NCBI GenBank assembly: GCA_038818725.1
Contig: JAWAYL010000003.1
Location: 1,791 to 65,790 of the forward strand
DNA: 64,000 nucleotides
Direction: 5' to 3'
Source of the DNA: Thermoplasmatota archaeon
Lineage (GTDB): Archaea; Thermoplasmatota; E2; UBA202; JdFR-43
In this document: positions 26,314 to 62,523 of the stretch, piece by piece
How the letters are laid out: each line of letters opens with the position of its first letter
Numbering within the stretch: position 1 is the stretch's first letter
Translations under genes and position numbers: made by a program
The notes under the pieces: model-generated
What the model was told of the DNA's origin: nothing
The model's database searches: none
What the model saw: the letters and a program-made list of their open reading frames with translations, nothing else

Positions 26314-26398
26314 GCAGGGGTAGCCAAGCCAGGCCAACGGCGCAGGACTTAAGATCCTGTGGTGAAGTCCTTCGAGGGTTCAAATCCCTCCCCCTGCA
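26314..26398 (+). tRNA. tRNA-Leu (anticodon TAA), intron-less, long variable arm
   Basis: Acceptor GCAGGGG/CCCCTGC plus A73. Anticodon arm CAGGA-CTTAAGA-TCCTG. T-arm GAGGG-TTCAAAT-CCCTC. Confidence 0.85.
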
Positions 26399-35056: not shown

Positions 35057-35174
35057 GCGGGCGTGATCTAGCTGGTTAGGATATGAGCCTTCCAAGCTCA
35101 ATGCCCGGGTTCGAACTGCAACTTGTCACAAGTTGCTTATTAAAGCAAGTTGCTTGAAAATCCCGGCGCCCGCA
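35057..35174 (+). tRNA. tRNA-Gly (anticodon TCC) with a 45-nt intron in the T-loop (35116-35160, about position 59/60)
   Basis: Acceptor GCGGGCG/CGCCCGC plus A73. Anticodon arm TGAGC-CTTCCAA-GCTCA. T-stem CCGGG...CCCGG interrupted after TTCGAA by CTGCAACTTGTCACAAGTTGCTTATTAAAGCAAGTTGCTTGAAAA. Confidence 0.75.
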
Positions 35175-35858: not shown

Positions 35859-37328
35859 TTGTATTTCATTTCAATGAAATTTGATTTGAAATGCAGCATT
35901 ACTACAAGCAAGGAAATAAAAAAAGAAGAGCTTGCTCATTTTTTCAATAACCTTACAATTGATGCAAAAATGGAATGGGATGCAAAAGAAAATAAAATTT
36001 TTTTAAGAATAATTTCTGAAAAAAGGAGAAGTCATGAGTGGGCTTTAAGAATAGTAAAAAAGCTTGAAGAATTTCTTGGAAAAATGAAAATTGGAATAAG
36101 GGATTTGCATCTTGACAGATATGAAATTGATTTTGAATTAGATAAGGAGCCATTAAAAAGTGTATCAATTCCATTTGCTGAAGTTGAAATAAAAGATAAG
36201 AAAGTAAAATTAATTATTTCTGATAAAGGAGAGGAATTTTTAAGGGAAAACTATGCTGATAGAATAATAAAAAGAATAAAAGAAAAAATAGATGCTCAAT
36301 ATTATGAAGGCAAAAAAGAATACTGGCATTTAGTCTGGCAAAGTGAGGAAAAAAAGGAAGCATGGAATAAAGATCCTTCTGAGGAAATGCTCAATTTGGG
36401 ATGGATAAAGTTGATGGGCAAAGGCAAATGGTTTTATTTCCCGCCAGCCGCAGCCATCATGCGGGCGATGGAAAGAATTGCAATAAATGAAGTAATTGCT
36501 CCCATTGGCTTTTCAGAGATAATTCAGCCAATGCATGTCTCATTTGATACTTGGCTTAAAACCGGGCATCTTGAAGGAATGCCAGGAGAAATTTATTATA
36601 TATGCGAGCCGAAGAGCAGGGAAGCGAGGGAATGGGAAAATTTTGTTGATTTAATTAAAATAAAAAGAGAAGTAAGCGATGAAGAGCTAATTAAAAATTT
36701 AAAGCCGCCAAAAGAAGGAGTTTGCTATGCCCAATGTCCAAATATCTATGCTTCTTTTGCTGGAAAGACAATTGCTGAAGAAAGTTTACCATTGCTTATA
36801 TTTGATCATTCCACTCCTTCAGATAGATATGAAGCAGGGGGCAAGCATGGTATTGAAAGAGTTGATGAATTTCATAGAATAGAAATTGTATATATTGGAA
36901 CAAAAGAACAACTTATAGAAGTAAGAGAAAAACTTATGGAGAGGTATAGATATGTGTTTGACAAAATACTTGATTTGGAATGGAGAATGGCAAAAGTAAC
37001 CCCTTTTTATTTACAGCAGGCTGGCATAACCGCTAGCGAGGAAGATGAAATAAAAGGAACAATAGATTTCGAGGCATATTTGCCTTATAGAGGGGATAGA
37101 AGCAAAGAATGGCTTGAAATACAGAATATTTCAATAGTTGGAGATAAATATGTAAAAGCATTTAATATAAAGGCCCAGAAAAGTGAGTTATGGAGTGGTT
37201 GCTCAGGAATTGGCTTAGAAAGATGGACAGTTGCATTTCTTGCTCAAAAAGGGATAGAGCCAGAAAAATGGCCGCAAGGTTTTAGAAGATATTTGCCAAA
37301 TTTACCAAAAATGCCAAAATTTTTGTAG
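35859..37328 (+). CDS. Class II aminoacyl-tRNA synthetase-like protein, resembling the atypical methanogen-type seryl-tRNA synthetase (or an amino acid:carrier-protein ligase homolog)
   Basis: Motif-3-like SGCSGIGLERWTVAFL near the C-terminus, with Cys adjacent as in the Zn-dependent mSerRS. Motif-2-like EPKSREAREWENF. About 489 aa with a charged N-terminal domain. Confidence 0.5.
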   Translation: MYFISMKFDLKCSITTSKEIKKEELAHFFNNLTIDAKMEWDAKENKIFLRIISEKRRSHEWALRIVKKLEEFLGKMKIGIRDLHLDRYEIDFELDKEPLKSVSIPFAEVEIKDKKVKLIISDKGEEFLRENYADRIIKRIKEKIDAQYYEGKKEYWHLVWQSEEKKEAWNKDPSEEMLNLGWIKLMGKGKWFYFPPAAAIMRAMERIAINEVIAPIGFSEIIQPMHVSFDTWLKTGHLEGMPGEIYYICEPKSREAREWENFVDLIKIKREVSDEELIKNLKPPKEGVCYAQCPNIYASFAGKTIAEESLPLLIFDHSTPSDRYEAGGKHGIERVDEFHRIEIVYIGTKEQLIEVREKLMERYRYVFDKILDLEWRMAKVTPFYLQQAGITASEEDEIKGTIDFEAYLPYRGDRSKEWLEIQNISIVGDKYVKAFNIKAQKSELWSGCSGIGLERWTVAFLAQKGIEPEKWPQGFRRYLPNLPKMPKFL

Positions 37329-42957: not shown

Positions 42958-42997
42958 TCTTTTCTTTATGCTTTACATAAATAAAAATTTTGGGAAG

Positions 42998-43113
42998 GGC
43001 CCGGGCCGGGATTTTCAAGCAACTTGCTTTAATGCGCAACTTGCACAAGTTGCAGTTTGAACCCGGGTCAAGGGATCCACAGTCCCTTATGTTACCGCTA
43101 CACCACCCAGGCC
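42998..43113 (-). tRNA. tRNA-His (anticodon GTG, encoded G-1) with a 44-nt T-loop intron (plus-strand 43012-43055)
   Basis: Reverse complement reads G-GCCTGGG...AGGGA-CTGTGGA-TCCCT...CCGGG-TTCAAA-[CTGCAACTTGTGCAAGTTGCGCATTAAAGCAAGTTGCTTGAAAA]-T-CCCGG-CCCGGGC-C. Confidence 0.75.
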
Positions 43114-49585: not shown

Positions 49586-51448
49586 TTAAGGATATCCTCC
49601 TATTTTTAAGCTTGGGTCGCCTAGCAATACCCATTCCTCAACTGTTTTACAATCAATCACATCTTTCATTGGGTCGCGAACCGCTATATAGTCAATTATT
49701 GCAGTTCCCCATGCTTCACCGAGCATATCTTTTCCTTTAGCTCCGTATGCACGGAAAAATCTCTCTTCTATGAATCCGCCAAAGTATTCAACTTCGTCCG
49801 GCACACCATTTTTGTTGTCATCATATCCACCTCCATGCCCATAGCCCAAGCCAGTGTTTCCAAAAGTGGCTATTGCTCCTTTATTTGCCATCTTCACTAA
49901 ATGCCAGCTAAAGCATTCATATGTTGGCTGATATGTCCATGGATTTTGCAGATCATCAAGCAAGCTTATATTAAATTCGCTGTTATGGCATCCTCCTATA
50001 ACTACAATTGGCTGCTTTTCTCCATTGCTAAGTAAATCCATATTGTAGGTCATCAATCCATTTACCCATGGTCCTTCTCCATTTTTGAAATGAGTTGCCC
50101 ATGCAGTTGGACTTCCATGTCCATCCATCGCAACAAAACCAAAGCCATTGCTCCAAGTTTTTATTACATTTATCCATGCAAATCTGCCAGCAAGAGGAGC
50201 AGGTTCAACATGTCCATATGTAAGGGTTCCATCAGATACATATAAACTTGTTTTAACAAACTTGCTCGCCATATAGTTATTATAGAACCAAGAAGTAGAA
50301 ACTTCTCCTTCAAAAACATCATTTCCTCCAAAAGTATCTCCTCCAATTAAAAGCATCTTTTTAAACCATTCTTTGCCATATGCATTGTTTTCATAATTAA
50401 CTATTTTATCAATCACATTCTGCAATTCCTTCAAGCTTTGACAAGCAAGTCTACCAACATATACATCTGGAGCTAAATCCAGCTTATCTTTTCCATATTT
50501 AAATGACCAAGCTCCAAAAACACCATCTCCATTTGTATCCCATGAAGAGAATGAGCCATCCGCATTATATATATCTGCAAAATATAAATCGCTTAAATAT
50601 CCAAATTCTTCCCGATCATCAAGAGCAGCATATCTTACAGGACAGTACCATAGAGCATCGTTGCTTGTTGTGGCTCCGTCCATCCCCCAGTTGCCGGTGA
50701 GATATGATCTTTTACCACCTACAAGCATAACATATTTTATTCCATATTTTTCGAGCACATCTTTTATGAAATACTTCACTTTTTCTGCACCATCCCTTCC
50801 TTCATAATTTGAATAAATGTTTTCAACCTTCTCAGAAATTACTCTTAAACCTTTTTCCTCTTTGTGTTGAATCAACCTTGCTATTTCATTTTCCCATTCT
50901 GAAGGATATATTATTAGCAAATCTTTTTCACTTTCACTCACCCCTTTATTTGGCAAATCGTGTGTAATTTTAATTTCAAAATCATTTGCTATTTCAACCA
51001 TATTCTCTTTTGCAATGTACCTCACTGGATATAAATGAATTGCAACAATCGTAGATAGCTTGCCTTCATAAAGCCCACCATATTCATTAATGGTATACCA
51101 TTCCTGTGGATATATTTCATATGCTTCACCATCCCCTTCATATTTTATATTTGTTCCATATGCGACCGCAGGCGGAGCGACAATTATGCTTGCTTTCTTC
51201 TTTTCTATTCCTTTTGGATTGCACTCTATGCTAACCTTTGTTCCAAGAGGAAACACATATGTTTTTACATAATAGGGCAACATTGGTTTTCCTGGAGATG
51301 AAGTATAGTAAGCATCGCTGTATTTTCCCCCATATATTTCCGCATATTCAATTTCTTCAAAATTTTTTGTGCTTTTTCTGTTATCCAAGCTTACAGCACT
51401 TAAAACAAGCATCATTAAAACTATTCCTGCTATACCTACTTTCCTCAT
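49586..51448 (-). CDS. Secreted peptidase C25 (gingipain-like) family protein
   Basis: Signal peptide. YVMLVGG, DVYVGRL, MDGHGSPTAW (His) and VVIGGCHNSEF (Cys), closely resembling the gingipain catalytic motifs. Confidence 0.8.
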   Translation of the reverse strand: MRKVGIAGIVLMMLVLSAVSLDNRKSTKNFEEIEYAEIYGGKYSDAYYTSSPGKPMLPYYVKTYVFPLGTKVSIECNPKGIEKKKASIIVAPPAVAYGTNIKYEGDGEAYEIYPQEWYTINEYGGLYEGKLSTIVAIHLYPVRYIAKENMVEIANDFEIKITHDLPNKGVSESEKDLLIIYPSEWENEIARLIQHKEEKGLRVISEKVENIYSNYEGRDGAEKVKYFIKDVLEKYGIKYVMLVGGKRSYLTGNWGMDGATTSNDALWYCPVRYAALDDREEFGYLSDLYFADIYNADGSFSSWDTNGDGVFGAWSFKYGKDKLDLAPDVYVGRLACQSLKELQNVIDKIVNYENNAYGKEWFKKMLLIGGDTFGGNDVFEGEVSTSWFYNNYMASKFVKTSLYVSDGTLTYGHVEPAPLAGRFAWINVIKTWSNGFGFVAMDGHGSPTAWATHFKNGEGPWVNGLMTYNMDLLSNGEKQPIVVIGGCHNSEFNISLLDDLQNPWTYQPTYECFSWHLVKMANKGAIATFGNTGLGYGHGGGYDDNKNGVPDEVEYFGGFIEERFFRAYGAKGKDMLGEAWGTAIIDYIAVRDPMKDVIDCKTVEEWVLLGDPSLKIGGYP

Positions 51449-51561: not shown

Positions 51562-51927
51562 ATGCCAATCTATGTAAAATTCGAAGTACCGGATGAGTTA
51601 GTCAAAAAATTGTATGAGCTGGTTGAAAAAGCAAGAAATAGTGGAAAAATAAAGAAGGGTGCAAATGAAGTAACAAAATCGGTTGAAAGAGGAGAGGCAA
51701 AGCTTGTTATAATGGCAAAAGATGTTTCTCCAGAAGAAATTCTTGCCCATATGCCATATCTATGTGATGAAAAAAACATTCTATACTCTTATGTTCCTTC
51801 AAAAGAAGAGTTGGGGCGCTCTGCGGGCTTGCAGGTTGCGACTTCTGTTGTTGCAATAGTAAATGAAGGAGATGCAAAAGAGATTTTTGAAGAAATTGTT
51901 AAAAAAGTAAAGGAGATAAAGGGATGA
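51562..51927 (+). CDS. rpl7ae: 50S ribosomal protein L7Ae (K-turn binding)
   Basis: [25 protein letters not shown]...VPSKEELG signature; 121 aa. Confidence 0.9.
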
Positions 51928-52309: not shown

Positions 52310-52762
52310 ATGGAGAGAACTTTTTTAATGATAAAGCCAGATGGGGTGCAAAGAAGATTAGTAGGTAAAATTTTGCAGAGAATAGAAGAGTGTGGTTTCA
52401 AAATAGTTGCAATGAAATTATTGAAAATATCTCGGGAGATGGCTGAAAAGCATTATTCAATACATAAAGGAAAGGATTTCTTTGAAGGATTGATAAATTA
52501 TATAACCAGCGGACCAGTTGTTGCAATGGTTGTTGAGGGAAAAGATGCGATAGAAAGATTAAGAAAAATTGTTGGTTCAACAAATCCAAAAGATGCGATG
52601 CCTGGAACAATAAGAGGAGATTTTGCCCAAGATATAGGAAGAAATATAATACATGCAAGTGATAGCAAAGAAACAGCGGATAAGGAAATAAAACTTTGGT
52701 TCAGCAAAGATGAAATAGTTGATTATATAATGGATGATGAAAAATGGCTTTTTGAGGATTAA
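52310..52762 (+). CDS. ndk: Nucleoside diphosphate kinase
   Basis: ERTFLMIKPDGVQRRLVGKI..., active-site NIIHASD; 150 aa. Confidence 0.9.
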   Translation: MERTFLMIKPDGVQRRLVGKILQRIEECGFKIVAMKLLKISREMAEKHYSIHKGKDFFEGLINYITSGPVVAMVVEGKDAIERLRKIVGSTNPKDAMPGTIRGDFAQDIGRNIIHASDSKETADKEIKLWFSKDEIVDYIMDDEKWLFED

Positions 52763-52848
52763 ATTTATATATTTTGCTAATAATATATTTTAGCTCCATC
52801 TCGAAGGCCTCTATGATAAATGAATAGAGGAGCAAACGTGGAGCAACA

Positions 52849-52906
52849 GCGGCATCACGGGCCCCTGCGCGATTAGTGAGCGTAAGGTCAACCCAGGTGC
52901 CGCACA
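52849..52906 (+). ncRNA. Candidate single-hairpin H/ACA-like guide sRNA (speculative)
   Basis: 69% GC island in a ~33% GC genome. Closing stem GCGGCA...UGCCGC is followed immediately by ACA. Internal GCGC-GA-UUAGU-GA-GCG resembles a K-turn/K-loop cap. Overlaps the last codons of panE. Confidence 0.3.
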
Positions 52907-53787
52907 CTCTCATTTGCTTTTATTAAGGCATATATAGTTTCATTTATACACGCATTTATTCCATGTTTTTTTGCTCTCCTTATTATTTCTCCAATTATCT
53001 CATCTACTTCTGTTTTCTTTCCAGAAATTATATCTTGGAGCATTGAAGAAATGTTTTCTGATGTATTTATTGCAACTTCCTGCGCTTTTTTTATTATTTC
53101 CTCGTCTATTTCAATTCCCTCTGCTTTTGCAACTTCAATTCCTTCCATGCAAATTTTTTCCATTAAATATTTTGTATATTCATTTCTAACCAATTCCCCA
53201 TTTTTACATCTTAAAATAGATGTTAAGCCATTAATTGCTGAATTTACTATTGCCTTCTTCCATTTTTCTTTTTTAATTTGGTTGCTTATTTTTGTTTCAA
53301 TTCCACATTCATTAAATGCTTCGCAAATCTTTTTTATCCTTTCACTAATTTCTCCGTTCATCTCTCCTATTATCGTTTCTCCCCTGCCGGCATGATATAT
53401 TTTTCCATTTTCGAGAAATATTACTCCATGAGTAGTTGTTGCTCCAATAACATTTTCAACGCCAATTTTTTCCGCTATAATTTCCTCATTTCTTAATCCA
53501 TTCTGAATTGAAATAACAGGAATTTTTCCAAATTTTCCTAAAATTTCATCTATTGCAAGCTTTGTATCATATGCTTTTGTTGCAAGAATAACAAAATCAT
53601 ATTTGCTTCCATCCCATCTTGTTTTAGGATAAAAAATCCCTTCAGTAACCCCTTCTATTTTCAATCCCTTTTTTTCTATTTCCTCGATATGCTTTTTTCT
53701 CCCAACAAGCAAAACATCATTCTTTCTTGAAAGAAGCCCGCCAAACAATGAGCCGATTGCTCCCGCTCCAAATATTATGAATTTCAT
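52888..53787 (-). CDS. panE: 2-dehydropantoate 2-reductase (ketopantoate reductase, PanE/ApbA)
   Basis: MKFIIFGAGAIGSLFGGLL Rossmann N-terminus, KPR-like length and C-terminal helical domain. Confidence 0.75.
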   Translation of the reverse strand: MKFIIFGAGAIGSLFGGLLSRKNDVLLVGRKKHIEEIEKKGLKIEGVTEGIFYPKTRWDGSKYDFVILATKAYDTKLAIDEILGKFGKIPVISIQNGLRNEEIIAEKIGVENVIGATTTHGVIFLENGKIYHAGRGETIIGEMNGEISERIKKICEAFNECGIETKISNQIKKEKWKKAIVNSAINGLTSILRCKNGELVRNEYTKYLMEKICMEGIEVAKAEGIEIDEEIIKKAQEVAINTSENISSMLQDIISGKKTEVDEIIGEIIRRAKKHGINACINETIYALIKANESVRHLG

Positions 53788-53891
53788 TGAATAAAATTAT
53801 TCAGCAAAATAAATTTTTTATTCTCAAAAGAGCTTCTCTAACTAATTTCAAAATATAAAATGTTATATATCAAATCAATAATTTACTTTTA

Positions 53892-54008
53892 AGCGGGCGT
53901 AGTGTAGTCTGGTATCACATAGCCCTGCCACGGCTATAACCCGGGTTCGAACTGCAACTTGTGCAAGTTGCGCATTAAAGCAAGTTGCTTGAAAATCCCG
54001 GCGCCCGC
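53892..54008 (+). tRNA. tRNA-Gly (anticodon GCC) with a 44-nt T-loop intron (53951-53994) identical to the tRNA-His intron
   Basis: Acceptor GCGGGCG/CGCCCGC plus A73. Anticodon arm TAGCC-CTGCCAC-GGCTA. T-stem CCGGG-TTCGAA-[intron]-T-CCCGG. Confidence 0.75.
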
Positions 54009-54011
54009 ATC

Positions 54012-54878
54012 CTATTTTTCTTTTTTTGATAAAAAATATATTCCAGCTAAAAGAAGAAAAATTCCGCAAGTTTGAAGAGTTGTTATGTTTTCTCCTAAAA
54101 TAAAAAAGCTCAAAATGGAAGCAAAAAATGGGGTTGATAATTCTATTGCTGAAACTTGAGCTGCTTTTATTCTTTTTAATCCTTCATAATATAGAATTGT
54201 TCCTGTTCCTCCTATAAATCCAAGAAATATCTGGTAAATGTTTGCTATATATAATTTTGAATTTATTGCAAGATAAATAAGTAGAGGAAATGAAGCTATT
54301 AAAAATCTGTAAAGAGTAAGCAAGCCAGCGTTTATTTTAGTAAGATATTTTCTCCCAACAATTGCTGTTGTTGCCCATGCAAATGTTGCAAGCAGGACAA
54401 AAAGGTCGCCAGTTGTGCCAAATTTAAGTGATAAAAAATTTTGAAATGTTCTTGTTGTTACTAAAAATGCAGAAATAATCATAAGAAAAATGCCAGTAAA
54501 ATCATATTTATTTAATTTATCTCCTCTCAGTAAAAAGAAACCAAGAATTATTATGAAAACAGGTTGAATATGCCCTATTAAAACAGCATTTATTACAGGA
54601 ATTTTTGTCAATGAAAGGAAATATAAAAAATCTCCAACAAGAGTTCCAACAATTCCAATATAAAGAATTTTTATCATATGTTCTTTTTTTATTTTTAACT
54701 CAGATTTATTTATTGCTGTTATGTAAAAAATTGCTATAATGCATGAGAAAAATGCTCTTATTGCGGATGTTTGAAGAAAATCAGAATTTTTGTAAGCAAG
54801 TTTTGCAAAGATTGGCTCAATAGCCCAAAAAAAGCTCGCGGTTAAAACTGATATTATTCCTTTTGTTTTATTTTCCAT
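54012..54878 (-). CDS. EamA/DMT-family transporter
   Basis: Ten predicted TM segments with duplicated EamA halves; 288 aa. Confidence 0.7.
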   Translation of the reverse strand: MENKTKGIISVLTASFFWAIEPIFAKLAYKNSDFLQTSAIRAFFSCIIAIFYITAINKSELKIKKEHMIKILYIGIVGTLVGDFLYFLSLTKIPVINAVLIGHIQPVFIIILGFFLLRGDKLNKYDFTGIFLMIISAFLVTTRTFQNFLSLKFGTTGDLFVLLATFAWATTAIVGRKYLTKINAGLLTLYRFLIASFPLLIYLAINSKLYIANIYQIFLGFIGGTGTILYYEGLKRIKAAQVSAIELSTPFFASILSFFILGENITTLQTCGIFLLLAGIYFLSKKEK

Positions 54879-57357: not shown

Positions 57358-60300
57358 GTGATTGAAATGGCAGCATATAAAAAAATGGGTATAATTTTTT
57401 TAAGTATATTGATGCTAACATCGACTTTTCCAGTTTATAGCGGCTCTAGCCGAGGTGAAAACCTGGAAAATAGTGAAACACTTCTGTATAAAATAAATTT
57501 TCCAGAGCCATCCCTTAAAGAAATTGAGGTGAATGGAAAAGAGTTTACTATAGTAGAGATACCTGATTGTATTAATACCGGCAAAAGTGGAGCCCCCTCC
57601 TTGCCTGTGTATGGTGTGCAGATTCTTCTTCCTTATGGAAGTGAATTAGAAGAAGTAAAAGTAAAAGGTGAAAAAACCGCGATATCAACAAATCTTAGGG
57701 GGAAACCAGTATTTCCATACCAAGAGCCTGTGCCCATTGGATATAAGGGAAAGGAATTTTTCATTGATGAAAATGCTTATAAAATTGAAAAATATCCTGA
57801 AAAAATTTACGATGTTATAGGAGTTGGATATTGTAGAGGATATGCAATACTTGCAATGAATTTATTCCCTGTAGAGTATTATCCCGTAGAAGGGGAGTTA
57901 TTTTACTATCCATTAATTGAAATAGAATTAAAATTAAATAAGAACGGTTATGTAAATGAGTTTTACAGAAATAATCCGAATGATAGAAGTTATGTTGCTT
58001 CTCTTGTAATTAACCCAGAGATATTAGATTCTTATAAAGTAAAAAGCGTATTTGAATATCCTGGAGGAATTTGCGATCCTTCACAAAATTATGACTATGT
58101 AATAATCACCAGACAGGCACTTGCAAACTTCTCCGGAAATTATACCTGGGCACATTTCATCGCAAGGAAGCAGGCGGAAGGAATTCAGGCAATAGTAGTT
58201 ACAGTAGAAGATATTGTAGCATGCCAAGCTTATTGGAACACAACTCCTATTTTTAATGATACCCCAGCAAAAATAAGGGAATTTTTGAGAGATGCTTATA
58301 TTGACTGGGGGATTGAATATGTTCTTATTGCTGGAGATAATGATGGAAGTGCTATGGTTCAAAGAAGATTGCTTCACTATGGAACAGGAGCATATGCAGA
58401 AAATGTTGACTCAGATTTATATTGGAGCAACCTTGATAATACATTCAATAGTGATATGGATAGTCAGTGGGGAGAATCAGATGATTCAGGATTCGATTTG
58501 TATTCAGAACTATTTATAGGAAGTATACCATGCGATACTGGAACAGATATTTCAAACTGGCTCACAAAAAGCTTTTATTATGCAGACTCAATGGAAAAGG
58601 ATTATCTTGAAAATGTTGGATTTTATGGAGGAGATACAGGATGGGCATGCCAAGGAGATGACTTTATGGATTTCACGTTGTATGGCACAAATAATTGGCT
58701 GGGTCCGGATCCAAATTATGATGGTCCGTGGCCAAGCTGGCTTGGCTTCCTCTATGGTTTCGACACATGGAATTTATCAAATCCAGGAATGGAATTCAAT
58801 ACAAGCGTTAGATGGACTGCTGAGCCGCCGAATCAAGGATGGCAAGGTGGCTCTGAATCTGCTGCAATTGCTGGTTTGAGAAATGCAATAAATAATAATC
58901 TCTGTGCAATTATAAATGGTATAGCCCATGCTAACGAGCATATGTCTCTGGATGTATATGATACAGAATGGGAGTCACAATATTTCAATACAAAACCATT
59001 TTTCATACATGATTACGGATGTCATTGTGGAGATATGGATGCAACAGATGATGGTGTGCTTCATTCAATGCTTTTCCATTCAAATATAGAGCTTGCTTTT
59101 GCATGCGTTTATAATACAGGATATGGATGGGGAAATTATTATTCAACAAATTCAAGTAGTGCATTGCAACAAAAATTATTCTGGGATTACATGCTCAATA
59201 CAAGCAAGTGTGGCGGAGTAATAAACTGGCGCCTTGGAAAAGCGCAAGCCTATTCAAAAGATGCAATGGCTCCTACTATAAATTGGGATCCTGGATATGA
59301 GACCTGGCGAGGAATTATCGAAAGCTGTCTGCTGTTTGGTGATCCTCATCAATTAATCAAGCCGCCAGAACTTCCAGAGCATAATGTAGGGGTTGTCTCC
59401 CTTAAAGTAGATGACCATGTTTTACCTGGTGAGCAGGTTTATATAAATGCAACTATAATAAATAGTGGCTTGAACAATGAAACAAATGTTATTGTAAGAT
59501 GTCGTATAAATGAAACAGAGATAGGAAATATAACAATTCCATTTTTCCAAAGCCAAACAATGCAAGAAGTAAGCTTTTTATGGATTCCAGCAATGGGATG
59601 GTATAATGTTGTTATAAACGTAACTATTCCAGGGGTAGAAGAAAATATCACTGTAGATAATGAAAAGAGCAAAGTTGTTGTTGCTGGGCCTGATGTCGCA
59701 GTTTCTTCAATAGATACACCTGTTTTTGCATCGGTTGGTACTATTACTGAAATAAAAGCTACTTTAAGCAATTTGGGAAAAGAGGATGAAATAGTCACCG
59801 TAAAAATAGTTGTAAACAATGTAACAGTAGATAATATTTCATTGATTTTGCAAGGGAGAAGGACAGAGAATATTTCATTGTTATGGAATCCTACCTATGA
59901 AGGATTTTATCCTGTAAAAATAGAAGTATTATGCGCAAATGATGTATATCCTGAAAATAACTTCAGAAGCAATAATGTAAATGTTGTAACTGCTTTAGGA
60001 TATGTTCTTCTTGTGGATGATGATAAAGGAGACAATTATGAAATTTATTACGAAAATGCATTGATGGCAGCTGGTTATGTTTATACTCTATGGAATAGGG
60101 ATGCGCAAGGAGTACCATCTCCTTCTTATATGGCAACATTTACAGCGGTTGTATGGTTTACTGGAGACGATTATACAACAACATTAACAGCCGAAGATAT
60201 AAATGCCCTTACAACTTATCTAAACAATGGAGGTAAATTGTTTATAACAGGCCAAGATATAGGTTTTGATATAAATACGGATCCTTTCTATAGCAATTAT

Positions 60301-62523
60301 CTACATGCTCAATATCTTGTAGATGATACAAATATTTATATCCTGAATGGGATAGCTGGTGACCCGATCGGAAATAATTTAACCATAGGCATCTCAAGTG
60401 GTGACGGGGCAAACAATCAGAATTGGCCATCTGGAATAAATCCGATAGGAGGAGCTACGCCGGTATTTCAATATTCTGGCTCATCTTATTATGGAGGAAT
60501 AAAATACGCTGGAACATATAAAGTAGTTTATTTCTCATTTGGTTTTGAAGCAATTAATAGTATGGCTCATAGAACAGAAGTTATGAGCAGAATAATGAAC
60601 TGGTTTGGGGGAGGAGGAAATGTATCAGATATTTATATAAATCCGTTGAATCTTGCATATGTAGTTGGAAGAGGAGAAATAATACATGAAAATATCGTGA
60701 TCGGAAATTCAATAAATGCAACAAGGAATCTGACATTTTCAATATCCTTACCACATGGCTTTATATTGCAATGGACTCATCAGCACGGCGGCGACGGCCA
60801 CTCAGAACTCGCCCAACCAGTAGGAGATATAGACGAAGATGGAATAAATGAATTTATTATTGGAGGATATGGAAGTGGAGGAACTTATATCTTTTCATAT
60901 GATTCATATAGTAAAACATATGTGCAAGAACATTTCTGGACACATGCTGGTGGCTCCTATAATGTGCCTTCTGGAGCTTGTGTTGTTGATTTAGATGATA
61001 ATGGTGACCTTGAGTTTGTGGTTTCGTGGGAATATAGTGGAGCAAATGGAATTCATGCTTATGATTGGAATGGAACAACGCTTACGGAGCTTGCGTGGTA
61101 TACAGGCACAGGATACGAGTTTGCATATGATGTTTATGCGTGTGATTATGACGACGATGGAGATGTTGAAGTGCTAATTGCAAATAGACCATCTTCTTCC
61201 ACTGGCTATCATGTTACTGCTTTAAGATGGAATAATACAACAAATCAATTTGAGAGAGAAATTTCATGGGGCAGTGGTCAAGCAACAGAATGTCCAATGG
61301 TATGGAGTGGAGATACTGATGGAGACGGAAAAACTGAAGTTATTGCAAGTGCTGGTACAAATACTGTATATGCTTTAAATTATCAGAACGGGAGTTGGCT
61401 GGCTACTATAGTTGCAAGTGGTCTGCCAGCTCATCCGTACGGTGTGGCATGCGGTGATTTAGATAGTGATGGGATAGATGAAATTGCTTTCGGATTAGAT
61501 GGAACACAGGCTTATATATACAAATGGAATGCAACATCTTCATCTTATCAACAGGTCTGGTACTATAATTATGCAGGAGAAAGTGATATTATAGAAGGAG
61601 TTGCAATTGGAGATGTAGATAATGATGGGCTAAAAGAAGTGGTTATTGGTCCAACTTATTTACACATTGTTAAATGGAATGGAACAGCATACAAAGAAGT
61701 TGCTACAATAACTGAAACCCAAGGAATGCTCGCTGGAGTAAATGTTGGAGATTTTGACAGCGATGGGAAAAATGAAATTAAAGCTTGTGACATTTTATCA
61801 GATGTGGGTAAGGAATGGATATTTGAGTATATAGAAGAGCCAAATTGGATTTTAATAAATCCAACGAATGGAACACTTCAGCCTGGACAAGAAATAAATA
61901 TATCTCTAACTATCAATACAGCAAATCTTGAGAATTTAACAAAAATTTATTTGCAGATAAATACAAATGATCCAGATGAAGCTATAATCCGCCTACCACT
62001 CTATATTTCTGTATTAAATGAAATAACCCATAACTTCTCCTTAGTTAATCCTTGGAACTTAATTACAATTCCAGTTTTAGCAAATTTAACTGCAAAAAGC
62101 TTAATTGAAAATATCTCAGCTTGTAATGTTGTTGTAAGATGGGATCCAATAAATCAAAGCTATAAAATATATACAGCAGGAATGCCAGAGCAATATAATT
62201 TTGCTTTAATTCCAGGAAATGGCTATTTTGTTGGATTAAATAATCAAGCAAATTACTCAATTACAGGAATGCCAATAAGTAGTGTAGAAGTAAATTTAAG
62301 TGTTGGATGGAATATGATAGGATGGTTTAAAGATTCAACAAATGCAAAGAGCTTAATGCAAAATATAACATCATGCAATATTGTATGCAAATGGGATGCA
62401 ATAAATCAGAAATATAAAGTATATGTGCAGGGAATGCCAGATTCATATAACTTTGCTATAAACAGAGGAGATGGAGTATTTGTAAGCGTTACTCAGCCAA
62501 GCATATGGCATGGAGAGGGATAA
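57358..62523 (+). CDS. Giant (1721 aa) secreted multidomain protein with many domains (listed in evidence)
   Basis: Domains: C25-like peptidase region, two CARDB-like domains, an alpha/beta module, seven FG-GAP/VCBS repeats, and two novel C-terminal tandem repeats. Signal peptide MAAYKKMGIIFLSILMLTSTFPVYSG. Candidate His AHANEHM and Cys DYGCHCGD. FG-GAP motifs GDIDEDGINE, VDLDDNGDLE, CDYDDDGDVE, GDTDGDGKTE, GDLDSDGIDE, GDVDNDGLKE, GDFDSDGKNE. Confidence 0.8.
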   Translation: MIEMAAYKKMGIIFLSILMLTSTFPVYSGSSRGENLENSETLLYKINFPEPSLKEIEVNGKEFTIVEIPDCINTGKSGAPSLPVYGVQILLPYGSELEEVKVKGEKTAISTNLRGKPVFPYQEPVPIGYKGKEFFIDENAYKIEKYPEKIYDVIGVGYCRGYAILAMNLFPVEYYPVEGELFYYPLIEIELKLNKNGYVNEFYRNNPNDRSYVASLVINPEILDSYKVKSVFEYPGGICDPSQNYDYVIITRQALANFSGNYTWAHFIARKQAEGIQAIVVTVEDIVACQAYWNTTPIFNDTPAKIREFLRDAYIDWGIEYVLIAGDNDGSAMVQRRLLHYGTGAYAENVDSDLYWSNLDNTFNSDMDSQWGESDDSGFDLYSELFIGSIPCDTGTDISNWLTKSFYYADSMEKDYLENVGFYGGDTGWACQGDDFMDFTLYGTNNWLGPDPNYDGPWPSWLGFLYGFDTWNLSNPGMEFNTSVRWTAEPPNQGWQGGSESAAIAGLRNAINNNLCAIINGIAHANEHMSLDVYDTEWESQYFNTKPFFIHDYGCHCGDMDATDDGVLHSMLFHSNIELAFACVYNTGYGWGNYYSTNSSSALQQKLFWDYMLNTSKCGGVINWRLGKAQAYSKDAMAPTINWDPGYETWRGIIESCLLFGDPHQLIKPPELPEHNVGVVSLKVDDHVLPGEQVYINATIINSGLNNETNVIVRCRINETEIGNITIPFFQSQTMQEVSFLWIPAMGWYNVVINVTIPGVEENITVDNEKSKVVVAGPDVAVSSIDTPVFASVGTITEIKATLSNLGKEDEIVTVKIVVNNVTVDNISLILQGRRTENISLLWNPTYEGFYPVKIEVLCANDVYPENNFRSNNVNVVTALGYVLLVDDDKGDNYEIYYENALMAAGYVYTLWNRDAQGVPSPSYMATFTAVVWFTGDDYTTTLTAEDINALTTYLNNGGKLFITGQDIGFDINTDPFYSNYLHAQYLVDDTNIYILNGIAGDPIGNNLTIGISSGDGANNQNWPSGINPIGGATPVFQYSGSSYYGGIKYAGTYKVVYFSFGFEAINSMAHRTEVMSRIMNWFGGGGNVSDIYINPLNLAYVVGRGEIIHENIVIGNSINATRNLTFSISLPHGFILQWTHQHGGDGHSELAQPVGDIDEDGINEFIIGGYGSGGTYIFSYDSYSKTYVQEHFWTHAGGSYNVPSGACVVDLDDNGDLEFVVSWEYSGANGIHAYDWNGTTLTELAWYTGTGYEFAYDVYACDYDDDGDVEVLIANRPSSSTGYHVTALRWNNTTNQFEREISWGSGQATECPMVWSGDTDGDGKTEVIASAGTNTVYALNYQNGSWLATIVASGLPAHPYGVACGDLDSDGIDEIAFGLDGTQAYIYKWNATSSSYQQVWYYNYAGESDIIEGVAIGDVDNDGLKEVVIGPTYLHIVKWNGTAYKEVATITETQGMLAGVNVGDFDSDGKNEIKACDILSDVGKEWIFEYIEEPNWILINPTNGTLQPGQEINISLTINTANLENLTKIYLQINTNDPDEAIIRLPLYISVLNEITHNFSLVNPWNLITIPVLANLTAKSLIENISACNVVVRWDPINQSYKIYTAGMPEQYNFALIPGNGYFVGLNNQANYSITGMPISSVEVNLSVGWNMIGWFKDSTNAKSLMQNITSCNIVCKWDAINQKYKVYVQGMPDSYNFAINRGDGVFVSVTQPSIWHGEG

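Follow-up and report, generated by a model that had tools for sequence, protein, structure and literature searches.

A probable bulge-helix-bulge intron in the T-loop of tRNA-Gly(GCC) from a Thermoplasmatota archaeon, likely copied recently between tRNA genes

A tRNA-Gly(GCC) gene interrupted in its T-loop lies in a 64,000-nucleotide (nt) stretch of contig JAWAYL010000003.1 (assembly GCA_038818725.1) from a Thermoplasmatota archaeon; this whole stretch is called the window. The gene is probably functional and carries a 44-nt bulge-helix-bulge (BHB) intron at position 59/60, a member of an intron family with fast turnover in one Thermoplasmatota clade that was recently copied between tRNA genes. 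The probability of this reading is put at about 0.82. The gene reads GCGGGCG-UA-GUGU...CACA-U-AGCC-CUGCCAC-GGCU..., followed by CCGGG-UUCGAA, the 44 nt, and U-CCCGG-CGCCCGC-A. When the insert is removed in silico, ARAGORN recognizes a perfect 73-nt tRNA-Gly(GCC) cloverleaf. The unspliced gene is not called as a tRNA by ARAGORN and reaches 21.8 bits on the Rfam tRNA model, for which the threshold is 29 bits.

The limits of the intron are fixed by an intronless orthologue. In GCA_014361195.1 (locus L027), whose aIF2-gamma is 92% identical to that of the window, the order ApbA, tRNA, EamA, S6e, and aIF2-gamma is kept, and the tRNA-Gly(GCC) gene at L027:8236-8308 is intronless and identical to the joined exons at 73/73 positions. 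The covariance test was made by proxy on intronless orthologues of this kind with identical sequence, which scored 68.1 bits (Gly(GCC), L027), 68.7 bits (Gly(TCC), L034), and 64.0 bits (His, L040) on the Rfam model. An earlier sequence-only reading had proposed a tRNA-Gly(GCC) with a T-loop intron here, to be checked with a covariance model, and the spliced cloverleaf, the orthologue scores, and junctions able to form a BHB bear this out. It placed the locus correctly, and only its coordinates (53892-54008) were one base off (Table 1). Because of the flanking A residues, the sequence alone allows a junction at 57/58, 58/59, or 59/60 equally, and 59/60 is the only one that fits the BHB register.

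Two other tRNA genes in the window, tRNA-Gly(TCC) and tRNA-His(GTG), are interrupted at the same site. The spliced Gly(TCC) sequence is a perfect 73-nt cloverleaf, and the spliced His sequence is a correct tRNA-His by ARAGORN. The introns of Gly(GCC) and tRNA-His are identical (44/44), as the sequence-only reading had claimed. The Gly(TCC) intron matches that of Gly(GCC) at 41/45 aligned columns, with one indel and three substitutions, which upholds the further claim of one homologous intron at one insertion site in three tRNAs. The block CCGGG-TTCGAA-(insert)-T-CCCGG-CGCCCGC-A was likewise found in both Gly genes, whose T-arms and 3' acceptor strands are identical. The tRNA-Leu(TAA) gene was confirmed as the only one of the four window tRNAs without the insert, and a split-T-loop scan together with a GC-island scan revealed no further hidden tRNA in the window.

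The same reading had raised identity of the two Gly 3' halves over their full length as a way to tell gene conversion from intron insertion. This identity was not found, since the 3' exons are identical and the introns differ at 4 of 45 columns. Conversion of a whole 3' half between the two Gly genes is therefore ruled out, and the Gly(GCC) intron equals that of tRNA-His, whose 3' exon is different. Judged by these alignments, what the genes share is the intron, at most extended by the T-arm (ACCCGGGTTCRAA ... TCCCGGC) that is already common to all three hosts; the tRNA bodies otherwise differ. The intronless tRNA-Leu is unlike them, with a GAGGG/CCCUC T-stem. An 18-mer across the 5' junction occurs at three sites (35108, 43046 on the minus strand with one mismatch, and 53944), and a 19-mer across the 3' junction also occurs at three sites (35145, 43009 on the minus strand, and 53980); 0.03-0.04 sites are expected by chance.

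Whole-window searches with ARAGORN and with Rfam at its gathering threshold returned only tRNA-Leu(TAA) and a distorted tRNA-His at 43042/43060-43112, and both Gly genes were missed. In the unspliced tRNA-His (43042-43112, minus strand), ARAGORN assembled a poor T-arm and acceptor stem from intron bases and thus reported a wrong 3' half, and the Rfam match was truncated, at 31.7 bits. Annotation of this type may undercount tRNAs, and tRNA-based completeness, in the clade. Such failures would also be seen if the three interrupted genes were dead tRNA pseudogenes or if the insert were an assembly artefact. This explanation is hardly credible, because the exons are 100% conserved beside flanks that have diverged by 15-34%, the insert always keeps the BHB, and it is present at three window loci as well as in independent metagenome-assembled genomes (MAGs) and metagenomes from several studies. 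The tRNA-His gene is, moreover, normally single-copy and essential.

Comparison with relatives gives both filled and empty sites. In GCA_014361245.1 (L034), the block from BNR and PurN through SerRS to iPGM is kept and tRNA-Gly(TCC) is intronless; its exons (L034:7700-7772) are identical to the joined exons of the window at 73/73 positions. Orthologous tRNA-His genes with identical exons carry an intron of 44 nt in the window, 29 nt in L039, 24 nt in L041, and 0 nt in L040, where the intronless gene matches the joined exons of the window over all 72 nt compared. The divergent 29-nt intron of L039 belongs to a tRNA-His between CitMHS and iPGM, on the same 278 kb contig of GCA_014361195.1. The window intron is about 15-17 nt longer than this one, in a stretch that holds an extra copy of one helix arm. 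Around the Gly genes, flanks are about 66-85% identical between the window and its relatives, so that exons conserved at 100% beside them must be under strong selection. These comparisons indicate that the window and these relatives represent different species and that the intron evolves much faster than the exons.

Three loci near these genes deserve separate mention. In L034, similarity upstream of iPGM (L034:15561-15640 against window 42960-43000) ends exactly at the tRNA-His 3' end. The locus lacks the His gene, and the rearrangement has its breakpoint at the 3' end of a tRNA, the kind of trace that integration of a mobile element would leave. In GCA_014361195.1, the slot beside a PurN-like gene (L039:18753-18935, minus strand) holds an intronless tRNA-Gly(CCC) and a tRNA-Pro(GGG), not tRNA-Gly(TCC). 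This tRNA-Gly(CCC) has the CCGGG/CCCGG T-stem of the intron hosts, yet it is intronless. Further S6e/aIF2-gamma loci (L028-L033, 77-80% identity) and LuxE loci (L035-L038, 70-74% identity) are uninformative on intron state, as synteny is lost and no tRNA is present at them.

The His introns differ greatly among relatives, yet those of tRNA-His and tRNA-Gly(GCC) in the window are the same, which argues for recent movement of sequence between non-homologous genes. Since GCA_014361195.1 has an intron in tRNA-His and none in tRNA-Gly(GCC), tRNA-His is the likelier source and tRNA-Gly(GCC) the recipient of a new insertion. The usual host of the intron in the closest relatives is tRNA-His, from which the Gly(GCC) intron would likely derive. 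The Gly(TCC) intron contains the 17-nt stretch that is missing from the 29-nt L039 His intron and has four differences from the other two window introns, and this points to an earlier event. Copying would most likely have been a DNA-level transfer between genes that share the identical T-arm. Reverse splicing followed by reverse transcription, or the action of an HUH-type single-strand DNA enzyme, is also a possible route; no reverse transcriptase or transposase was seen among the annotated open reading frames (ORFs) of the window.

These data can also be read the other way, with introns ancestral in all three genes, exact losses in the relatives, and identity of the His and Gly(GCC) introns maintained by ongoing gene conversion. 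Exact absence is indeed seen in tRNA-His as well, in L040, which is the closest sampled relative by CitMHS identity (90%), so that loss or repeated gain does take place. Short direct repeats, (TTC)RAA and (TTG)AAAA, flank the intron and could mediate its exact deletion by slippage, and introns with a duplicated CAAGTTGC arm occur in distant MAGs too, so the form may be old. Against this, a separate exact loss would be needed for each Gly gene in each sampled relative (L027, L034), and GCA_014361195.1 retains the His intron beside an intronless Gly(GCC). The 44/44 identity would still require transfer between non-homologous tRNA genes. As transfer is needed either way, the sole point of difference between the ancestral explanation and recent copying into Gly(GCC) is whether the Gly sites had been empty before. 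The ancestral explanation is considered unlikely.

The predicted fold of the T-arm and intron has z-scores of about -3.1 to -3.7. In the window it comprises, in order, the T-stem, a 3' bulge A-A-U60, a central helix UUCR(A)/(U)UGAA, a 5' bulge of 3 nt, and an inner helix GCAACUUG/CAAGUUGC. The minimum-energy fold was helix-bulge-helix-bulge-helix in 17/17 family members tested, and only one of them was free of a one-base-pair slip in register. The canonical 3-4-3 register lies 0-2.1 kcal/mol above the minimum in these members and about 2 kcal/mol above it in the window. Gly(GCC) has both bulges of 3 nt along with the two flanking helices, and an hBHBh' motif can be drawn for all family members. 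Each window intron contains two copies of the 3' arm CAAGTTGC, from which two mutually exclusive hairpins can form; the first CAAGUUGC copy of Gly(GCC) falls in the stretch absent from the 29-nt L039 intron when the two are aligned. Long forms of the intron in other MAGs have a different spacer, GTTTCCAAGCAGG.

Covariation was followed in a fixed-register alignment of 11 distinct members, in which 94.5% of cells are paired, compared with <=51% in slid registers. The central helix is paired in 100% of cells, with G.U/A-U and U-A/U.G alternation, and the outer helix (T-stem) likewise shows 100% pairing throughout the family, together with compensatory changes. Clear double changes are found mainly in the T-stem, and others lie further inside the inner helix, such as GCAACCUG/CAGGUUGC in L010, GCAGGUUGC/GCAACUUGC in L018, and GCAUG/CAUGC in the tRNA-Arg intron of L001. 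Compensatory variants of helix h' occur in L010, L018, L039, and L041. The first inner-helix position varies by member and may be U.U, U.G, or A-U.

Splicing, the enzymes involved, and the direction and mechanism of copying are matters that we infer. In the precursor, the T-stem would act as the outer helix, while U54-R57 and the 3'-terminal UGAA of the intron would form a central helix of 4 bp. The two 3-nt bulges would then be A58-A59-C and A-A-U60, enclosed by the inner helix of GCAACUUG and CAAGUUGC. The tRNA splicing endonuclease (EndA) is predicted to cut after A59 and before U60, and an RtcB-type ligase would join the exons, which would give back the normal 7-nt T-loop. In archaeal tRNA splicing, EndA is known to cleave inside both bulges, so that a 2',3'-cyclic phosphate and a 5'-OH remain, after which RtcB ligates the exons. 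By bringing the complement of the near-universal T-loop sequence, the intron could make a working splice site in almost any tRNA. Pairing of the intron end UGAA-AA with this sequence would explain why the insertion position is constant across seven tRNA identities. A self-splicing group I or group II intron is ruled out, as the insert has only 44 nt and a ribozyme core has hundreds of nucleotides. Rfam searches of the window and the gene gave no intron match for the insert. With a guide-RNA role in mind, as in tRNA-Trp introns, the intron was inspected by eye, without a motif scan, and no C or D box motif was seen.

The literature ascribes an alpha'2 EndA to Thermoplasmatales and describes a strict BHB as a requirement of the alpha'2 and alpha4 enzymes that are typical of Euryarchaeota. 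By phylogeny, an endonuclease of the class known from Thermoplasma acidophilum and Archaeoglobus fulgidus (alpha'2; PDB 2OHC, 1R0V) would be expected here, and this class is reported to recognize a BHB in isolation, with no need of the mature tRNA domain. A tBLASTn search with the PDB-validated Methanocaldococcus jannaschii EndA and the A. fulgidus catalytic repeat gave no match in 398 kb (the window plus all fetched loci). Relatives encode an RNA 2'-phosphotransferase (Tpt1/KptA, PF01885) and an RNA 3'-phosphate cyclase (RTC, PF01137) at L039:473-1105 and L030:7788-8801. These RNA-end-processing enzymes may have a role in splicing or repair.

Several points weigh against a functional, recently copied BHB intron. 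The strict BHB demanded by alpha'2 and alpha4 endonucleases stands against a predicted motif that is near-strict, with a U.U mismatch at the first inner-helix position in the main family. The energy optimum is a slipped 5-bp central helix (A58-U), where cleavage would give a wrong T-loop of 8 nt, and the weak central helix (UUCA/UGGA) of the L039 and L041 His introns is left open in their minimum-energy fold. Eight of the 11 alignment rows were retrieved by a pattern with fixed junction bases, and invariance at those bases weighs little. No EndA or RtcB gene was found among the ORFs of the window or the fetched loci, the window covering about 64 kb of the host genome. On the history of the intron, one intronless relative was sampled for each Gly gene, and gain was told from loss by the identity argument instead of by a rooted phylogeny.

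The register itself can be judged by its product. Only 3-4-3 places the cuts after A59 and before U60 and yields the T-loop of the orthologue, and it was therefore taken as the functional register; the slipped helix is ruled out as a cleavage register because its 8-nt T-loop is unlike that of the intronless orthologue. The L039 and L041 His introns were found by synteny and have U.G and A-U where the window has U.U. In these two, 3-4-3 can be enforced without a mismatch at a cost of 0.6-2.6 kcal/mol, and this mismatch-free motif supports the canonical register. As modelled, the motif keeps both bulges and is not a match to the relaxed intron class (HBh', hBH, BHL), in which one bulge is disrupted or missing. 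With both bulges kept, no broad-specificity EndA need be assumed.

The intron is not confined to the window. A scan of a genome collection gave five matches, each of them in a Thermoplasmatota MAG and at position 59/60 of some other tRNA, namely Ser(CGA) in AUK033 and AUK189, Cys(GCA) in S5B3_HD70 and JdFR-43, and Val(GAC) in HyVt-387. A looser metagenome scan added 59/60 introns in Ala(GGC), His, Cys, and several Ser tRNAs. It also gave 11 matches outside tRNAs (L007-L009, L012, L013, L015-L017, L020, L022, and L023), which look like chance matches rather than intron copies, since the roughly expected number is of the same order. A structural scanner that does not depend on the intron sequence detected a divergent 59/60 intron in the tRNA-Arg(TCT) of L001 (MAG AUK033), 0.5 kb from the intron-bearing tRNA-Ser(CGA), so that at least two hosts are present in that genome. 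Viral contigs gave 0 matches to the intron, and the idea of a viral origin was rejected.

A small DNA transposable element has also been weighed as the identity of the insert. It would be a single-hairpin element of the REP/PATE type, moved by an HUH enzyme (IS200/IS605 or RAYT-type), inserting 3' of TTCRAA in single-stranded DNA, excising without a scar, and tolerated since it is spliceable by chance. Insertion and absence are in fact scarless and leave no target-site duplication, the short target does not vary in sequence, and the primary sequence of the inverted repeat is conserved across tRNAs and across genomes of 31-53% GC. This identity is nonetheless very improbable. No Y1/HUH transposase or TnpB occurs among the annotated ORFs of the window, which is about 64 kb of an incomplete genome, and a blastn-short search of the same 398 kb revealed no copy outside tRNA T-loops. 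The remaining blastn-short matches were all <=19 nt with E >=0.6, including one in L004/L025 (1580-1598) in a coding region. The insert also has one hairpin instead of two distinct ends, and its 3' end is exactly what the BHB requires. One may speculate that the intron end TTGAAAA is a mutated target-site duplication of the palindromic TTCGAA, but there is no simple derivation between them.

An actively mobile, self-contained T-loop intron, which brings its own UUCR-complementary half of the splice site and can colonize any tRNA gene, is a tentative extension of these results that falls a little short of even odds. If it holds, such introns may be spreading within genomes of a phylum that has been credited with canonical introns only and with an endonuclease of strict specificity. 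The clade would then be a very clean natural system for intron movement, with an identical donor and recipient, empty sites, and 24-, 29-, and 44-nt variants. Movement might then proceed by reverse splicing, by DNA conversion over short homology, or through an unknown DNA enzyme.

Archaeal BHB introns at non-canonical positions were reportedly described by Marck and Grosjean in 2003 and by Sugahara in 2008. Position 59/60 is among the published non-canonical positions in Crenarchaeota and Nanoarchaeota, and the introns of Euryarchaeota are portrayed in reviews as few and restricted to the canonical 37/38 position (PMC4090602). The introns of Crenarchaeota and Nanoarchaeota resemble the present one in being short, in lying outside the anticodon loop, and in forming the BHB from exon and intron bases. 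They differ in that the host here belongs to Thermoplasmatota and the motif is a near-strict hBHBh' instead of a relaxed HBh', hBH, or BHL. An uncultured lineage outside Crenarchaeota with non-canonical introns resembles the window host in lineage type and intron position, but its introns are relaxed and need a broad-specificity enzyme with a special loop, whereas the motif here is near-canonical. A full-text literature search found no published account of such introns in Thermoplasmatota or Aciduliprofundum.

The closest precedent is that of Thermoproteales, where near-identical introns in different tRNAs are interpreted, in the reviews PMC4090602 and PMC4033280, as intron transposition of unknown mechanism. 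According to these reviews of the 2010 report (Mol Biol Evol 27:2233), those introns are near-identical, share a position, and occupy different tRNAs of one genome, as here, and in both cases intron gain by copying is implied. Thermoproteales have many intron groups at many positions by the same account, unlike the single T-loop-only family in a different phylum considered here. Empty syntenic sites in close relatives, which define the event to the base, are a further difference. The way in which archaeal protein-spliced tRNA introns arise has awaited an explanation since the near-identical Thermoproteales introns were described. The window gives a sharper case, with an identical 44-nt intron in two unrelated tRNA genes, empty Gly sites in relatives, and the His length series. 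It extends non-canonical positions and intron sharing to Thermoplasmatota, contrary to the textbook summary for Euryarchaeota. The chemistry is ordinary; the lineage, the confinement to the T-loop, and evidence of gain and loss that is exact to the base are the notable points.

Table 1. Coordinates of the tRNA genes, their introns, and the predicted splicing motif (positions in the window unless a locus is named)
Feature	Position	Strand	Basis
tRNA-Gly(GCC) gene, 117 nt with intron, no CCA encoded	53893-54009	+	ARAGORN on spliced sequence
Exon 1, acceptor 5' strand to T-loop nucleotide 59	53893-53951	+	
Intron, 44 nt, position 59/60	53952-53995	+	Presence/absence against L027
Exon 2, U60, T-stem 3' strand, acceptor 3' strand, discriminator A73	53996-54009	+	
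TTATATAT, candidate archaeal TATA box, 23-30 nt upstream of mature 5' end	53863-53870	+	Read from sequence
Two T runs just 3' of tRNA-Gly(GCC), likely archaeal terminator	54015-54027	+	Read from sequence
T-stem 5' strand, outer helix h of BHB, pairs with 53997-54001	53941-53945	+	Folds
T-loop 54-57 UUCG, 5' strand of central 4-bp helix, pairs with intron UGAA	53946-53949	+	Folds
5' bulge, A58, A59, and first intron base C; predicted cleavage after A59	53950-53952	+	BHB register
Intron helix h', 5' arm GCAACUUG	53954-53961	+	Folds
First copy of 3' arm CAAGUUGC, can make an alternative nearby hairpin	53964-53971	+	
Second copy of CAAGUUGC, arm used in BHB-forming fold	53981-53988	+	Minimum-energy folds
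Intron UGAA, 3' strand of central helix, complement of T-loop UUCR	53990-53993	+	Folds
3' bulge, A, A, and U60; predicted cleavage before U60	53994-53996	+	Folds
Copies of the CAAGTTGC arm	Gly(GCC) 53964-53971, 53981-53988; Gly(TCC) 35129-35136, 35146-35153; His 43036-43043, 43019-43026		
tRNA-Gly(TCC), 45-nt intron at 35116-35160	35057-35174	+	ARAGORN on spliced sequence, split-T-loop scan
tRNA-His(GTG), encoded G-1, 44-nt intron at 43012-43055	42998-43113	-	ARAGORN on spliced sequence, split-T-loop scan
tRNA-Leu(TAA), uninterrupted comparator	26314-26398	+	ARAGORN, Rfam
tRNA-Arg(TCT) intron, 48 nt, 59/60, inner helix GCAUG/CAUGC	L001:5161-5208	+	

The region of the candidate TATA box TTATATAT upstream of tRNA-Gly(GCC) is conserved in part in L027. 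Genes nearby are archaeal (S6e, aIF2-gamma, aIF2-alpha, and L7Ae), the nearest relatives are Thermoplasmatales/Thermoplasmata MAGs, and the GC content of the window is 34%. A GC-rich island between NDK and ApbA (52737-52937, plus strand) matches the archaeal H/ACA guide RNA family HgcG/Pab40 with 55.5 bits and E = 5.6e-14, under the gathering score of 77; it lies downstream of the L7Ae gene (51562-51927), at a distance of 0.8 kb. Adjoining tRNA-Gly(TCC), an ORF at 35859-37328 (plus strand) encodes the core of a class II aminoacyl-tRNA synthetase, fused at its N-terminus to a PF18490 tRNA_bind_4 domain, a mark of the atypical 'methanogen-type' seryl-tRNA synthetase. The window also encodes a gingipain-like C25 peptidase (49586-51448, minus strand), a protein of 1721 amino acids with C25 propeptide, CARDB, and FG-GAP domains (57358-62523, plus strand), and several more large PKD/BNR/Ig surface proteins. 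As judged from these predicted domains, this set of peptidase and surface proteins is consistent with a protein-degrading lifestyle in sediments or vents.

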